Source: Candidatus Poribacteria bacterium | GTDB lineage: Bacteria > Poribacteria > WGA-4E > WGA-3G | DNA length: 64,000 nt | Direction of reading: 5' to 3' | NCBI GenBank assembly: GCA_965214095.1 | Contig: OZ243938.1 | Span: 2,400,001-2,464,000 of the forward strand | Part shown: one piece after another, positions 18,070 to 24,336 of the stretch | Layout of the letters: each line of letters starts with the position of its first letter | Position numbering within the stretch: the stretch's first letter is position 1 | Position numbers and translations under genes: made by a program | Notes under the pieces: model-generated | What the model was told of the DNA's origin: nothing | Seen by the model: only the letters and a program-made list of their open reading frames with translations | Database searches by the model: none

Positions 18070-19053
18070 CTAATCAAAACCTAAACGTTTTACTTCGGTT
18101 TGAAGGGAGATTCCTGTTTTTTCTTTCACATGTTTTTGGATATACGCGACTAAGTCTAAGACATCATTCGCAGTGGCGTTGTCAAGGTTGAGGATAAAGT
18201 TGCCGTGTATAGTTGACACCTCTGCTCCACCGATACGGTGTCCTTTCAAACCACTGATGTCTATGAGTCGTCCAGCAGAATCGTCAGGGGGATTTTTGAA
18301 CATACATCCCGCATTCTCTTCAACGAAGGGTTGCGTTTCTATTTTCTGTTTGAATAGGGTGTTCATCTTTGATGTGATTTCGTCAACATCACCGGGTTGT
18401 AGCTTGAGGGTCGCTGCGATAACACAGAAATATGCTTCTAAGCCGCTGTGTCTATATTCAAATTGTGCTTCGTCATGGGTTAGCGTTATCAGTTCACCTG
18501 TATCCTGCATGACTGTAACATCTGTGACGACATCCCCGAAACTGCTGCCCCATGCACCTGCGTTCATTATGAGCGCACCACCGACTGAACCCGGAATACC
18601 GAGCGCGAATTCAACACCACTTAATCCGTTCTTTGACATCAATTTGGAGAGACCTGGTAGTGATTGTCCCGCACCTACGGTGACTATTTCGCCATCTACA
18701 TCCAAATTTGCTAATTCACCGATTAACCGAATACATAATCCTTTGAAACCTTTATCGCTTACCAGCAAATTTGATCCTTTTCCGATAACTGCAACAGGCA
18801 CTTTCCATTCTCGGTGAAATTGCGCTAATGTAACTAAGTCGTCTATTGTGTTTACTTCTATGTATGCTGTTGCTTCTCCACCGATGCCGAAGTGTGTATG
18901 TTTTGCGAGCGGTTCTTGAAAACGGAGTCGTGTGTGTTGTTGGAAATCTATTCTTGATAATTCATCTTTCCAGGTGATACTCACTACGGAGACTAAAGCC
19001 GTGTGCTTCTTTGGCACACAACTCCCTATGTGATTCTTGTTTCCGTCTCTCAT
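18070..19053 (-). CDS. murB: UDP-N-acetylenolpyruvoylglucosamine reductase; start uncertain (ATG 19053 or GTG 18984, both inside an IS right end)
   Basis: HTHFGIGG, GKGSNLLV, GIPGSVGG, MNAGA, NAGCMFKNP, HGNF, EV. Confidence 0.92.
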   Translation of the reverse strand: MRDGNKNHIGSCVPKKHTALVSVVSITWKDELSRIDFQQHTRLRFQEPLAKHTHFGIGGEATAYIEVNTIDDLVTLAQFHREWKVPVAVIGKGSNLLVSDKGFKGLCIRLIGELANLDVDGEIVTVGAGQSLPGLSKLMSKNGLSGVEFALGIPGSVGGALIMNAGAWGSSFGDVVTDVTVMQDTGELITLTHDEAQFEYRHSGLEAYFCVIAATLKLQPGDVDEITSKMNTLFKQKIETQPFVEENAGCMFKNPPDDSAGRLIDISGLKGHRIGGAEVSTIHGNFILNLDNATANDVLDLVAYIQKHVKEKTGISLQTEVKRLGFD

Positions 19054-19130
19054 GCCTTTTCCTGAACGGTGTTAGGTCTTATTTGGACTCCACAAGCGTA
19101 ACTTCCCGTCTATCCGACGGCAGTTGGTTT
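18974..19130 (-). ncRNA. Putative TnpB omega/reRNA scaffold region
   Basis: Lies between the tnpB 3' end and the TCAC right end; inferred from the known IS200/IS605 architecture, boundaries approximate. Confidence 0.45.
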
Positions 19131-19834
19131 TAGATTTATAGCTGCGTTAACATCTCTATCTATAGTTATATCACATTTAGGACAGTGATATGTTCTATCT
19201 GATAATGCTTTTGCCAACTTTTTATTCTTTAGCATATTAGCAACTTTTAAGGTTTCTATGCCGATAGCACTTGCATTATGGACAATAATAAGTAGTAGCT
19301 TTGTGGTGTGCGTCATTTCTAATACAGGCAATCTTGTAATGTAAACGTGCTACGCTTTCTTTGGCTTTATACCAGTTTTTTGATTTATACACTTTTCTAC
19401 TCAAGGCACGATTTTGACGCTTCAACTTTTTTTCATCACGTCTCAATGGTCTTGGGTTTTCATATTTAGTGCCATCACTCAAAGTAGCAAGTGTGTTGAT
19501 ACCTACATCTATACCTATAACAGGGTGCGTTGAGTTGTCAACTGCTTCGGTGTCCTCTGTTTCTACAGTAATAGATATAAACCAACGATGTGCCGTTTTT
19601 GAAATTGTCACACTAATAATCTTTCCAATAAAACGCAACTCTTGAAACATCTGGACCCATCCAATCTTGGGTAATCGGACACGTTTGCCAAGATTGAAAA
19701 TTGTCTTTACATAAACCAACCTTAAAATCAGATAAGGCATGATTATATGCCAATCGGGCATAACCGCTTTGCTGTGAAAACCAATGCCTTTGTCTAAATG
19801 TAGGATCTAATGTTATTTTATGTGTCTTATACAT
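19110..19834 (-). pseudogene. tnpB: tnpB pseudogene in three frames with internal deletions
   Basis: MYKTHKITLDPT..GYARLAYN, then RLPKIG..GIDVGINTLATLSDG, then IGIETLKV..LSD|RTYHCPKC..DRDVNAAINL. Confidence 0.88.
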
Positions 19835-20014
19835 GGCATCACTGCTTCTGTGCAGATTCTGTTTCCCCCTACTAAAGGTGTGGTAGATGTTAGTAGCATC
19901 TACCACTGAAACAGTCTAAATAGTATACCACAAAAAAATAGATTAATATACAAACTTTCTTGACCCAAGTCTAAAGACTTGGTATTGTTAATGAAGTCCC
20001 TTCATATATTTCTC

Positions 20015-20830
20015 CTAATCGTGTGTCTGAAAACGATATACTTCTTGTGCGTTTTCGGATAGGTTTGTCCATATCTCTTCTGGAACACGTGCGTTGAATA
20101 TATTTGGTGCATCAGGTGCATGGTGAAATCTGCGAAAATAGACCAACGCGAACATGTGTCGGCGTGTTTGCGTGCGGTTCGGCATTGCACGATGCCAACA
20201 CCGCATATCCCGAACTACTATAGAACCTGCGGGCATGACTAACTGAAATGAAGGGAGTTGGGCAGCCCGTTCCTCTTCACATACGTTGTAGGGTGTATTT
20301 CGAACTGCTTCGTCATCAATGATGAGATGTGAGCCGGGCCACACTTCCGTTGCACCGTTTTCCACCGTAAAGTCAACCAGTGGAATGTTAACAACTATTG
20401 ATGTGACTGGCAGTGCAAACGGTAACTCAGGAAAGAGTTGACCGGAATCTCTATGGATCCATTGTATATCAGAACCCGGTGCAGTTGAGTTGCATCCGTA
20501 GGGCAAATATGCAAATATCTTTTCTCCCATGACCGCCTTCATTATCGGCAAGGCAAAAGAGTTGTCAATTATCCGGGCATCCATGAATGGCATCTTTAGC
20601 ATCGGGTGTATGCCGTTGTGGACTTCATCTCCGTTATCAAGAACTGACTGCATTGCTGTGTTGATCGTTTCTATCCAATCGCGAGGAAGAACACTTTCAA
20701 TGACAACTAATCCTGTTTCGCGTAGAAGGCGTGCGGCAGCATCTATGCTCTCTGATGTAGGTTTGTTTTCAGCACGTTCCTGTGCTGATATTTCTAACTT
20801 AGGTATGTTGATTGTTGTTCCTGAACTCAC
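20015..20830 (-). CDS. Phytanoyl-CoA dioxygenase (PhyH) family 2OG-Fe(II) oxygenase
   Basis: QWIHRD, ENGATEVWPGSH, WHRAMPN. Confidence 0.9.
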   Translation of the reverse strand: MSSGTTINIPKLEISAQERAENKPTSESIDAAARLLRETGLVVIESVLPRDWIETINTAMQSVLDNGDEVHNGIHPMLKMPFMDARIIDNSFALPIMKAVMGEKIFAYLPYGCNSTAPGSDIQWIHRDSGQLFPELPFALPVTSIVVNIPLVDFTVENGATEVWPGSHLIIDDEAVRNTPYNVCEEERAAQLPSFQLVMPAGSIVVRDMRCWHRAMPNRTQTRRHMFALVYFRRFHHAPDAPNIFNARVPEEIWTNLSENAQEVYRFQTHD

Positions 20831-20838
20831 GGTCAGAC

Positions 20839-21591
20839 CTATCCTTCTGTTTGATTTGGTGGTAGTTTCAATGCTTCTCTCACTTCTTGACGAACTATGT
20901 TACAAGTTTTTACTACATGTTCAGCATTTCCCGAAGTAGCAGATTTACCGGGATAACGAAATTCCACAGCATAAGGAGCAATAGTAGAAAAATCTGTTTG
21001 CCAAATATTCCAATCTGGAATAGTAGGAAGAATCAGACCTAATAATGCTAACAAATCATGTGATCTTGGTAACGGAATGTTTGTCTCTTGTAACCATGCC
21101 TTTAAATACTTCTCTATACACTGTTGTGCGTGGAAACAGATATGATCATAATCTGGTGATGATGCCTGTTGATGCAATCCTATGGCATTATAATCTCTTT
21201 CGGCTTTCTGCACCCACTCAAGTGTTAATGGATTCATACCCTCCTCTTTCTTTTTGAAAGGTTTGCTGACAAAGCTAATATTTCCATAAAGCACTTTACC
21301 TCTTTCTGTGATCTCACGAAGAAACCAATCGTTGTGTGAGATTCTATAAGCGATCTCATCTGGTGTCCGCACGAGCAAATCCATGCTAAAGCGACGTGGG
21401 ATACGTTGCCATATCTCTGCAGCTTGCTTGGTTGTCTCCGATTCTGAGATATCCATCACAACCAACAAATCAACATCTGAGTCTTCTTTTGGCGTGCCGT
21501 AGGCGTGGGAACCAAATAGAATAACTTGAAGCGGTGAGAATTCACGAACAATATCGTCACAGGTTGCTTGAATGTCATCTTGCGTAATCAT
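20839..21591 (-). CDS. Fused MNT nucleotidyltransferase-HEPN protein
   Basis: LFGSHAYG..DSDVDLLV, then FHAQQCIEKYLKA, RSHDL, FRYPG in one ORF; ATG 21591 preferred. Confidence 0.85.
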   Translation of the reverse strand: MITQDDIQATCDDIVREFSPLQVILFGSHAYGTPKEDSDVDLLVVMDISESETTKQAAEIWQRIPRRFSMDLLVRTPDEIAYRISHNDWFLREITERGKVLYGNISFVSKPFKKKEEGMNPLTLEWVQKAERDYNAIGLHQQASSPDYDHICFHAQQCIEKYLKAWLQETNIPLPRSHDLLALLGLILPTIPDWNIWQTDFSTIAPYAVEFRYPGKSATSGNAEHVVKTCNIVRQEVREALKLPPNQTEG

Positions 21592-21738
21592 GACCTTTCT
21601 CCTTATTGGCAAGTATAGCATGGAAGCATAACAGATGTCAATATGGGTGTGAAATGGTTTGACATTCATATTGTATAGTTTACAAATCTATATGCTGCTA
21701 TAATACAATCAGTTCAATCCGATGGAGGAATAATTCCC

Positions 21739-24336
21739 ATGAAACATATATTCCCGATTCTTGTACTTCTCATCGTATTTGCCAGTTGTTCCCCACCAGA
21801 ACCCGTGGAGTTCCCCGACCCAAATTTAGCTGCTGCTGTACGCGAAGAATTAAGTTTATCCCCTGATGAACCTATTATGAATAATCAACTAAAAGAACTT
21901 ACAATTCTGATAGTTTCAGGGAAAAAGATAAAAGACCTAAAAGGTTTAGAAAAAGCAAAAGGATTGACACATTTGTATCTGAGTGGACATCAAATTTTGG
22001 ATCTCACACCACTTGAAAAATTAAACAAATTGGATTCCATAGATCTTTCATCCAATCCAATTACTGATTTCACTACTATCTCAAAATTCAAGAAACTTGA
22101 GAAATTAAGACTTAGTAATAACAACATAAGGGATATTTCATTTCTGAGCAACCTAAAAAAGTTAAATTTATTAGATCTTAACATGAATCGTATCACTGAT
22201 ATCACACCGCTTGCTAATCTGATTAATATGAAGACGTTATTTCTTGAGAACAATGAAATTACCGATACTGCACCACTGTATGATTTGACCCAACTCATGA
22301 CGTTACGTCTAAGGTATAATAAAATTTCGAACCTATCTGGACTTGAAAACAAGATAAATCTGAAGAACTTACTTTTATCCAACAATGAAATAACTGACAT
22401 TTTACCCCTTACGAACCAGACGGAACTCTCCGAATTACATCTGGACTATAACAAAATCAAAGATATTTCTCCTCTCACTAATTTATCAAAATTAAGGGAA
22501 TTGCACCTGACAAGCAATGAAATCAACAATATAACACCACTTGCTGATAAATCTAACATAACAAACTTAAGCCTGGCCCAAAATGAGATTAGTGATCTCG
22601 CTCCCATTAGCACCTTAACAAAGCTAAACTATCTACACTTAAATGACAATTACATCAAAGACGTAACCCCTCTTAAAAGATTGACTAATCTGACACGATT
22701 GCAATTAAGAGATAACGAAATCACAGATATAACACCGTTAAATGACTTACCCCAGTTGAGGGACTTAGAAGTAGGAGGTAATCCAGTTTATGATATGACA
22801 CTTGTTGAATCTATCAAACAGACTCAGAGACAAAAGTTCAGTGATAAACAGACAAGTTCGTCTTCGAAAGAAAAACCGATCCAAGAACCATCTCCTACTC
22901 CACAAACCACGATATTTCCCGATCCGAACTTAGCCGCTGCAGTCCGTAAAGCACTCGGTTTAAATCCAACAGACCCTATTACGCAAGAGAAACTCAACTC
23001 GTTAGGAGTTCTAGATTACGTAAGAGGTGTAACCGATCTAACAGGATTGGAAAAGGTAAACAATTTAGTGAAGTTAAGTATCGTTACGCATCAGATTAAA
23101 GATATTTCACCAATTAAAGAATTGACCAAACTCGAATTTCTATATTTGTCTAACGGAGAAATTAGCGATCTAACCCCACTCGCAGGTCTAACACAGTTGA
23201 AATTCTTATTTCTGGCAGGAAACCAAATTAGCGATCTAACCCCACTTGCGGGTCTAATAAATCTGAGAATATTATCACTCGGTGCTAATCAGATACGGGA
23301 CATCAGTCCACTTGTTGGGTTGAAGAATTTAGCAAGTTTGCGTTTCAGGGAAGTTCACGTTTTTGATGAAAGCATACATAACGATATCAGCGACATTACA
23401 CCGCTAAAAGAGTTGCCCCAACTTAATACCTTAGCACTTAGTCGTGGAACTCTTACAGACATAACCCCACTCGCAAGTATAAAGAGTTTAATGGAGTTAT
23501 TTATTGCAGAGAACCATATTAGTGATTTAACCCCTCTCTCAGAATTGAAATACCTAAGGAACTTAACCATTGAACAGAATAAAATTAGTGACCTTACACC
23601 TCTTTCAAAGTTGAAATTGTTGGAATCCCTTAGTATCAAAGATAATCCAATTAGCGACATAACTCCTCTCGGTGATTTAAAACACCTGACGAGTTTGTCA
23701 CTGTTTAATAATCAGATTGGCGACATCGCACCCCTTGCAGAATTGATACATCTGAATTCATTATATATTAGCGAGGCACAAGTTAGGGATATCACTTCAC
23801 TATCAGAGTTGAAGCATCTTACGGATTTATCAATTCGTGAGTGTCCGATTGAGGATCTAACAGCACTTGGACAATTATCACGACTAAGAAGTCTATCATT
23901 GTCAAATGGAGGGTTAGTAGATGAGCTAACACCTCTTGGCAGATTGACCAAACTAGAACGTTTATCTTTATCAAGCAATCAGATTAAGAGTATTACGCAA
24001 CTTGGCACAGTACTACCTAAAATGAGGCATCTAACCAATTTAGAGTTAAACGATAATCAAATACAAGATGTATCTCTACTGACAAAGATTACACAACTCA
24101 CAAGATTATCACTTGGTAAGAATCAAATCCGAGACATAACTCCCCTCGCTGGAATGACAAAACTAACATTGTTATATATGGCAAACAACCAAATCCGGGA
24201 TATCAGTACTGTTGAGAACTTTAAACAGTTAGATGTTCTACATATTAAAGGAAATCCAATTCAGAATCTTTCGCCGATTCGTAGGCTTCGCAAAGAATTG
24301 CCGGATTTGTACGTAGACATCAAAGTTGATCCGTAA
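21739..24336 (+). CDS. Internalin-like LRR lipoprotein with two capped LRR modules
   Basis: Lipobox FASC; FPDPNLAAAVR cap occurs twice; 22-aa LxxLxLxxNxIxDIxPL repeats. Confidence 0.92.
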   Translation: MKHIFPILVLLIVFASCSPPEPVEFPDPNLAAAVREELSLSPDEPIMNNQLKELTILIVSGKKIKDLKGLEKAKGLTHLYLSGHQILDLTPLEKLNKLDSIDLSSNPITDFTTISKFKKLEKLRLSNNNIRDISFLSNLKKLNLLDLNMNRITDITPLANLINMKTLFLENNEITDTAPLYDLTQLMTLRLRYNKISNLSGLENKINLKNLLLSNNEITDILPLTNQTELSELHLDYNKIKDISPLTNLSKLRELHLTSNEINNITPLADKSNITNLSLAQNEISDLAPISTLTKLNYLHLNDNYIKDVTPLKRLTNLTRLQLRDNEITDITPLNDLPQLRDLEVGGNPVYDMTLVESIKQTQRQKFSDKQTSSSSKEKPIQEPSPTPQTTIFPDPNLAAAVRKALGLNPTDPITQEKLNSLGVLDYVRGVTDLTGLEKVNNLVKLSIVTHQIKDISPIKELTKLEFLYLSNGEISDLTPLAGLTQLKFLFLAGNQISDLTPLAGLINLRILSLGANQIRDISPLVGLKNLASLRFREVHVFDESIHNDISDITPLKELPQLNTLALSRGTLTDITPLASIKSLMELFIAENHISDLTPLSELKYLRNLTIEQNKISDLTPLSKLKLLESLSIKDNPISDITPLGDLKHLTSLSLFNNQIGDIAPLAELIHLNSLYISEAQVRDITSLSELKHLTDLSIRECPIEDLTALGQLSRLRSLSLSNGGLVDELTPLGRLTKLERLSLSSNQIKSITQLGTVLPKMRHLTNLELNDNQIQDVSLLTKITQLTRLSLGKNQIRDITPLAGMTKLTLLYMANNQIRDISTVENFKQLDVLHIKGNPIQNLSPIRRLRKELPDLYVDIKVDP

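Follow-up and report, generated by a model that had tools for sequence, protein, structure and literature searches.

The locus described here raises a simple question: how can a bacterium keep a functional MurB when a transposon occupies codon 2 of the only murB gene found in its genome? The window, a stretch of 64,000 nucleotides from a Candidatus Poribacteria genome (assembly GCA_965214095.1, contig OZ243938.1, positions 2,400,001 to 2,464,000), carries on its minus strand a decayed, non-autonomous TnpB element of the IS200/IS605 family (1027 nt, 18974..20000), followed by a murB open reading frame (ORF) that lacks only its first five bases and is otherwise intact (18070..18973; Pfam MurB_C, 2.3e-33, and FAD_binding_4, 1.6e-23). 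We consider it probable that the element inserted at the start motif of murB, that it exchanged flanks with a second copy, that murB is translated from the right end of the element and that insertions of this kind are tolerated throughout the family. An initial annotation of this DNA had already placed a TnpB element inside the 5' end of murB, and the features that it listed (phyH stop, AGGAG, ATG, hairpin, -10, right end and murB) are all present where it had located them. Below, G000 denotes the window's own genome, and G-numbers, L-numbers and X-numbers designate genomes, loci carrying copies of the element and sequencing runs, respectively.

The ends of the element were set with a twin copy and with empty sites. 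The twin lies at G000:C1:2730504-2731528, on the opposite strand, and is 98% identical to the window copy (1011/1032 aligned positions); the stretch common to both runs from ATGAAGGGACTT... to ...GTATCAC. In relatives, murB orthologs start with ATG-(AAC/AAT/GAC/GAT/GAA/GGT)-TGG-AAA, that is M-[N/D/E/G]-W-K, in 30/30 loci, and the closest of them (G021, 97% identity) reads ...AAAAGGAACAAA ATG AAC TGG AAA. Because of the twin's shared stretch and of the ATG-NNN-TGG-AAA starts of the orthologs, only ATGAA is assigned to the host sequence, and GGGACTTCATTAA... is assigned to the element, which by this comparison extends from GGGACTT to GTATCAC. The alignment places the insertion between ATGAA and C-TGG, in codon 2 of murB, between ORF bases 5 and 6. 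The right end stops at 18974 and C TGG AAA GAT GAA TTA of murB adjoins it directly; removal of the element restores ATG AA|C TGG (M-N-W-K-D-E-L) with no shift, duplication or loss. The presence of a TnpB element inside the 5' end of murB is thus borne out by the twin, by the single murB and by the orthologs, in which the empty-site comparison proposed with the initial annotation found the uninterrupted M-[N/D/E/G]-W-K start. None of these orthologs begins with VSITWKDEL, the start expected if the element were intergenic, and VSIT is element sequence. The twin and the 30 orthologs contradict the boundary first drawn for the element and the rejoined products MKGLHYWKDEL and MKDFINWKDEL that went with it. 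Finally, two studies include runs in which the murB junction was assembled (X1 and X4; X5), and a 94-nt contig of X5 covers 18910-19003 across it with zero differences.

We then considered where translation of murB could begin. A search for a second murB found a single PF02873 match in G000, a genome that is 94.5% complete. The gene encodes full-length FAD_binding_4 and MurB_C domains, which identify the product as MurB, and compared to G021 it shows 97% amino-acid identity over 299 residues, 95% DNA identity and a dN/dS of 0.10. Because no in-frame ATG, GTG or TTG occurs for ~80 codons of murB after the junction, a functional MurB would have to start inside the right end of the element, a conclusion well supported by inference and strengthened by the insertion pattern of the whole family described below. 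As first annotated, the murB frame stays open back to GTG 18984 and ATG 19053 (ORF 18070-19053). Three start candidates, all in frame with murB, are found there: the GTG of the terminal GTG AGT ATC AC (18982..18984), which would give M-S-I-T-W-K; a GTG at 19015..19017, 4 nt past TAGGGAG; and an ATG at 19051..19053, with AGGAAAAGGC in front, which would give 27 extra residues. The latter is, on comparison of the copies, a derived ACG-to-ATG change, with ACG at this position in five other G000 copies and ATG in the twin and L078. The right end itself (18974..19109, 136 nt) is non-coding, omega-RNA-like and conserved in all copies, and contains two hairpins, GTGTGC...GCACAC and ACGGC...GCCGT. As a speculation, these two hairpins might bring a conserved AGGAG(G/A)G, ~45 nt upstream, near GTG 18984. 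The proposed rescue of murB by an insertion sequence end serving as leader and N-terminus therefore stands insofar as the frame can open only in the right end; the accompanying claims on the native start and on the order of decay do not, for the reasons given below.

The same observations bear on the alternative that murB is silenced and that the cell relies on rare excision of the element by TnpA acting in trans, on IStron-like splicing or on an unassembled murB. Precise excision is established for IS200/IS605 elements, G000 possesses five Y1 transposase loci and the completeness of 94.5% is in keeping with a missed gene. Nevertheless, rare excisants cannot supply an essential enzyme to the remaining population, none of the TnpA loci (0/5) is accompanied, at a distance of up to 1.5 kb, by ends of the family to which the murB element belongs, and it is the occupied junction that was assembled in the runs of two studies, bearing in mind that a rare empty allele would escape contigs. 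With regard to splicing, the left end is only ~165 nt long, and an Rfam scan of 18800-20200 (E ≤ 1) returned no intron, omega-RNA family or riboswitch, with one chance snoRNA hit. We consider silencing of murB very unlikely.

According to the initial annotation, the native ribosome-binding site (RBS) and start of murB were stranded 1 kb upstream. This corresponds to a single insertion into murB that left its own RBS and ATG in place, the nuclease having decayed later, and AGGAG and ATG do directly precede the element at 20016-20003. The flank, however, is that of another gene. In the window, AGGAG (20016-20012) is followed by six bases and by ATGAA (20005-20001), and this left flank (the 3' end of phyH, GATTAGGAGAAATAT and ATGAA) aligns base for base upstream of a different gene, here named geneX, in G003, G012, G005 and G001. 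The gene order in G012 and G003 is HEPN/nucleotidyltransferase, phyH, geneX and a cysteine-desulfurase-like gene. Moreover, contigs of a relative in an RNA library from another study show both empty sites, ...AACACAAAAGGAACAAA-ATGAA followed by murB and the phyH-flank ATGAA followed by geneX, and have their loose ends at 18973 and 20001. Since the left flank matches the region upstream of geneX in four relatives and in the RNA-library contig, the RBS and ATG located 1 kb upstream of murB (20001..20016) are attributed to geneX, the body of which is found 311 kb away, beyond the twin. The transposon target motif (TAM) coincides with the final four or five bases of 20001..20016. The phyH-like dioxygenase gene (20015..20830; Pfam PhyH, 1.2e-21; stop TAG at 20017-20015) is, by synteny, the ancestral upstream neighbour of geneX and not of murB.

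At the twin, an RBS-like AAAGGAAC, six bases and ATGAA precede the element, which is followed by A CGA ACA CTA.... The orthologs of geneX, the gene downstream of the twin, start with ATG-(AAA/GAA/GAC)-(CGN/AGA) in 14/14 loci, the closest two reading ATG AAA CGA ACA, and by these alignments the window copy and the twin each interrupt an ORF after its fifth base. No Pfam family was matched by geneX. The last ~30 nt of the twin's left flank resemble the region upstream of murB in G021 (87%, 26/30 nt) and in G001 (84%), with E ~2e-4 and 7e-4 at single loci, a resemblance that is suggestive but weak. The remainder of this flank contains a dispersed repeat of ~100 nt (L002:1348-1450; G000:C1 ~2730351-2730453), which was matched 26 times in G000 and tens of times in each of 38/40 genomes of the genus, more than 800 times in total, and a genus-wide DNA search with the twin's 250-nt left flank returned only this repeat.

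The state of tnpB in the two copies gives the order of events. In the window, the broken gene (19110..19834, ATG at 19834) consists of three frame fragments (19613-19834, 19276-19761 and 19110-19331) that match Pfam HTH_OrfB_IS605 (PF12323), OrfB_IS605 (PF01385) and Cas12f1-like_TNB (PF07282). Intact relatives in G000 (L003 and L004; 73-87% DNA identity) encode a TnpB of 358 amino acids, from which the window copy differs by frameshifts and by the loss of ~205 and 144 nt. These large deletions are identical in the twin. Because both copies carry the same tnpB deletions, the element is best read as already broken at its last transposition and mobilised in trans, contrary to the earlier view that the nuclease has since decayed. 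With the left flank belonging to geneX, the body of geneX behind the twin and the deletions shared by both copies, a single insertion followed by later decay is highly improbable.

The simplest history compatible with the assembly and with synteny appears to be that the element inserted twice and that the inverted copies then underwent homologous recombination, which inverted 311 kb. In this scenario, the broken, non-autonomous element would have inserted 3' of (A)TGAA, namely the murB start codon and two bases, with no target duplication, and a sister copy would have inserted likewise at geneX. Recombination between the inverted copies, 311 kb apart, would then have exchanged their left flanks and left murB behind the promoter region, RBS and ATGAA of geneX. 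The old ATG would open only a five-codon mini-ORF, MKGLH* (ATG AAG GGA CTT CAT TAA, 19988..20005), in which the ATGAA of geneX runs into the left end; the equivalent left-end sequence is present in the twin and in the intact copies. Deprived of M-N, murB would be translated from GTG 18984, GTG 19017 or ATG 19053 in the right end, on a transcript coming either by read-through from upstream or from the element's own promoter. As a candidate for the latter, the TG-extended -10-like motif TGGTATACT (19922..19930) corresponds in the alignment to the -10 of a promoter-like site, TTGACA-N17-TAATAG, of intact copies. A consensus scan for promoters and terminators gave hits no more numerous than in shuffles and not including this motif, and it returned no terminator-like site on the minus strand between phyH and murB. 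Among the contigs of the sequencing runs, none spans the whole element or joins across it.

We then analyzed the insertion sites of the whole family. TnpB relatives were found in 30 of the 40 Candidatus Poribacteria genomes searched, with up to 28 matches per genome. A total of 151 loci were examined, 71 of which had both ends of the subfamily, GGGAATT...GTGAGTATCAC, leaving 48 unique copies once same-flank sites were removed; the other 80 belonged to another subfamily, were cut by contig ends or were partial. NTGAA precedes all 48 unique sites (ATGAA 34, TTGAA 10, GTGAA 3, CTGAA 1). The terminal sequence GTGAGTATCAC is present in 46/48 unique copies and the remaining two retain the GTG. The element always enters in the same phase, which puts its terminal GTG AGT ATC AC in frame at each insertion. 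The sites were classed by ORF criteria rather than by gene calls, a site being start-like when an ORF of 100 codons or more (60 or more if still open at the locus end) begins at the NTG and an in-frame stop lies at most 25 codons upstream. By this definition, 20 sites of 48 (about 40%) were start-like, 3 had a long ORF with the frame open 27-33 codons upstream, 23 had no long ORF, one was clearly inside a gene (L111, a WD40 gene) and one was the CTGAA site. Among the ATGAA sites, 17/34 were start-like, compared to 5.7% of the 20,336 ATGAA sites of G000 (P = 7e-13). Coding-interior ATGAA sites outnumber start-like ones in G000 by 14 to 1 (16,376 vs 1,166), and interior insertion was seen once.

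Pfam families were matched by 19/20 of the ORFs downstream of start-like sites, L125 having no match, and several of the matches begin at the start of the profile: adh_short 2-189 (residues 5-194), zf-HC2 3-35, N6_N4_Mtase 1-220 and Glucosamine_iso 5-218. At L004, the DUF433 profile was matched over 1-56 in a 78-codon gene too short to count as start-like; at L069, only the second half of FGE-sulfatase was matched, and this site is not a true start. Orthologs confirmed the empty site for 6/6 genes, namely murB, geneX, the L007 gene and genes for an SDR, an M20 peptidase and an amidohydrolase, the latter three reading ATG AA(A/T) and the same third codon in orthologs without the element. An insertion common to G020 and G003 (element 98.8% identical) is followed by a gene with 15 synonymous and 9 non-synonymous differences (dN/dS 0.16). 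Under the family-wide part of our interpretation, insertion at an NTGAA start codon would keep the GTG in frame and be tolerated, and insertions inside genes would be purged.

Two additional features were considered and set aside. Extra upstream in-frame starts were no commoner in start-codon copies than in others, and only the terminal GTG is general. A coupling ORF ending at a TGA overlapping the GTG was 0-3 codons long in 40/48 copies. A sister TnpB subfamily (L081-L088, L132, L134, L175, L176, L182; 62-76% identity, 12 unique copies) was also recovered; it has different ends, with TTATC before the left end and a right end that finishes GAGTATGTCA and includes an ATG at 7 nt from its tip. 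In the sister subfamily, 3/12 copies have a right flank that is open starting at the junction, vs 26/48 in the main one, the sister sample being too small for a comparison.

A number of observations weigh against the interpretation given above, in which murB is translated from the right end after a flank exchange and in which start-codon insertions are tolerated. Concerning translation, GTG 18984 has no Shine-Dalgarno motif, and genes of the genus usually carry AAGGA or GGAG 6-9 nt upstream; the RNA fold of the right end is no more stable than shuffles (z = -1.1) and offers no structural argument for access to the start; and the RNA-run contigs matching the stretch come from relatives only and not from the window organism, a run labelled as possible RNA of this organism (X23) containing almost none of the sequence words of the stretch. 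Concerning the exchange, the match between the twin's flank and the region upstream of murB is short and is not the best hit in a genome-wide short BLAST. The upstream neighbours of murB differ among G021, G005 and G001, gene order being scrambled among relatives. The last ~300 nt of the window copy and of the twin differ only by a 4-nt indel, no contig connects the differences specific to one copy to flanks on its two sides, so that the exchange rests on the long assembly, and GC skew over the 311-kb interval shows no inversion signal, the whole chromosome being noisy. Concerning the family, if insertion were tolerated equally at start-like and at non-coding ATGAA sites, 30% of sites would be expected to be start-like, and over this null the 17/34 observed is only a modest excess (P = 0.011), and copies within related genomes are not fully independent.

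The points on phasing and on GC skew, together with contigs that break inside the repeat, also favour a reading in which the flank exchange was created by misassembly at the two 1-kb repeats, which are 98% identical, phyH-element-geneX and murB-upstream-element-murB being in fact contiguous. The contig is nevertheless 5.2 Mb long in a 4-contig assembly, where 1-kb repeats are normally spanned, and a comparable flank swap is seen at the SDR gene of L105 in another genome. An artefact is thus unlikely, although less so than the silencing of murB. The excess over tolerated sites (50% vs 30%, with the P value of 0.011 given above) can also be read as targeting, the element being directed to start codons by melted AT-rich initiation regions or by a longer, RBS-containing motif, with the right-end GTG irrelevant. 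A is indeed preferred at motif position -5 (34/48 sites). On the other hand, no conserved sequence was found upstream of NTGAA in the flanks, and targeting would not explain the survival of an essential single-copy gene and of many intact enzyme genes. Among the alternatives, we give this one the most weight and still hold it to be rather unlikely. Overall, insertion at the start motif, flank exchange and translation from the right end remain our probable explanation for murB.

A broader proposal, which we advance tentatively and as one that may well prove wrong, takes three ideas together. The element would be a start-codon-replacing transposon, whose target motif is a start codon plus AA and whose in-frame GTG (M-S-I-T) swaps the first two residues of the host protein, so that the gene survives; its copies would be mobile sites of crossover through which one gene receives the promoter and RBS of another, as at murB and geneX and at the SDR gene of G003; and right-end remnants would persist as domesticated leaders, as at the L007 gene. 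At L105/L217 (G003:C1 ~640-643 kb), an SDR gene has the element in codon 2 and a left flank with a different RBS and ATGAA. This flank is unlike the upstream region of the orthologs of that SDR in five other genomes, and L105 is on this comparison an apparent second flank swap between copies. At L007:1502-1630 (G000:C1 ~868364-868492), a right-end remnant of ~125 nt stands in frame before an intact gene of more than 500 codons. That gene reads V-S-I-T-N-F-H..., and its orthologs start with (A/T)TG AAC AAC.... Right-end-only remnants also occur in L008, L010 and L011, with their 5' edge at about the same place, just past the tnpB stop.

With regard to known systems, several features assign the element to the IS200/IS605 family and, as judged from sequence, to its TnpB-only (IS1341-like) group: the TnpB domains, insertion 3' of a short motif, no target duplication or terminal inverted repeats, and subterminal hairpins. 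At the left end, the hairpin CCAAGTCTTTAGACTTGG (19965..19982) shows compensated changes in L003 and L004. The element contains no tnpA. The TnpB of L003 aligns nearly full length with the solved ISDra2 TnpB (E = 3.8e-47) and keeps the D...E...D and CxxC...CxxC (zinc-ribbon) motifs, the alignment shown for these motifs being that with the top hit, an AI-designed nuclease, and not with ISDra2. The TnpB of ISDra2 is an RNA-guided nuclease, and its TAM is TTGAT. The elements described here share with ISDra2-type elements this TnpB alignment, the subterminal hairpins, duplication-free insertion 3' of a pentanucleotide and a right end that is conserved and non-coding, the expected location of an omega RNA. 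They differ in an (A/T)TGAA motif, deduced from the 48 sites, in having no tnpA and in that ~40% of copies lie in codon 2.

IStrons are likewise TnpB transposons located inside intact protein-coding genes without destroying them. The IStron paper presents splicing as the feature by which IStrons, unlike canonical IS605 elements, stay silent within genes. The murB element has no intron; silence would come from its codon-2 position and from a replacement start, and the N-terminus of the host protein is changed rather than restored. An IStron identity was accordingly rejected, on the absence of a group I intron in the Rfam scan of 18800-20200 and on the left end of ~165 nt. A TldR, a nuclease-dead TnpB-like repressor, was also rejected: intact copies retain the catalytic motifs (GIDVG, IETL and DRD) and are multicopy with transposon ends, and the window copy is simply broken. 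A third comparison is with non-autonomous IS200/IS605 derivatives, for which the name PATE appears in a figure legend. As in these, no TnpB or TnpA is encoded, and yet two 98% identical copies are present at two sites; in contrast, the window copy consists of more than its two ends, ~725 nt of broken tnpB remaining between them. Insertion sequences are also known to mediate inversions and to drive the expression of neighbouring genes through hybrid or outward promoters. Here too, inverted copies would have recombined and the downstream gene would depend on transcription through or out of the element; the difference is that the element sits inside a coding sequence and would supply the start codon as well, and that recombination swaps whole 5' regions, with promoter, RBS and ATG, between genes, as at murB and geneX and at the SDR gene of L105.

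IS200/IS605 and TnpB elements, the ancestors of Cas12, are intensively studied. Apart from the intron-bearing IStrons, they are not known to have a way of residing within genes. In the literature searched (main texts in open access), neither TnpB or IS605 elements located at start codons nor a TGAA TAM turned up. In the genomes examined here, the element occupies codon 2 of one essential single-copy gene and of some 20 further intact genes, each time with an in-frame GTG at its tip, and we propose that a right-end start would be a second route, beside splicing, to silence inside genes. If translation restarts at the tip, this would be a new and simple "safe harbour" route for a transposon, N-termini could vary and genes could swap promoters as a result, and gene callers would report transposon-derived N-termini or pseudogenes at such sites. 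The insertion sites further suggest a TnpB with a TGAA-type TAM. Elements of this subfamily are found in sponge-symbiont genomes, with approximately four in ten at gene start codons like that of murB.

Some further observations concern the element family. The five Y1 (PF01797, IS200-type) transposase loci of G000 are at G000:C1 81623-81976, 4230081-4230434, 2385609-2385962, 2170036-2170389 and 2666075-2666299. In X20, an RNA library from another study, short contigs of related elements fall on 19046-19099 with contig depths of 60-240, compared to 6 and 20 for contigs on the tnpB body, contig depth being a poor measure; the right-end contigs would be consistent with an omega-RNA-like transcript of high abundance, although they are no more than a hint. 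A mini-element of ~430 nt is also present in G000, alongside the right-end remnants of ~125 nt. The intact copy L003 (L003:2337-2360; G000:C1 ~482961) lies ~20 nt upstream of the RBS of a GAPDH gene (MATKVGINGFGRIGR...), and its right end is TATCAA instead of TATCAC.

Beyond phyH, a single ORF of 276 amino acids (20839-21669, minus strand) encodes a nucleotidyltransferase domain (NTP_transf_2/Polbeta) fused to a HEPN domain. Nucleotidyltransferase and HEPN domains are usually encoded by the two genes of a toxin-antitoxin pair. Adjoining the phyH and HEPN genes, a leucine-rich-repeat protein of 865 amino acids with a signal-peptide-like N-terminus is encoded at 21739-24336 on the plus strand.

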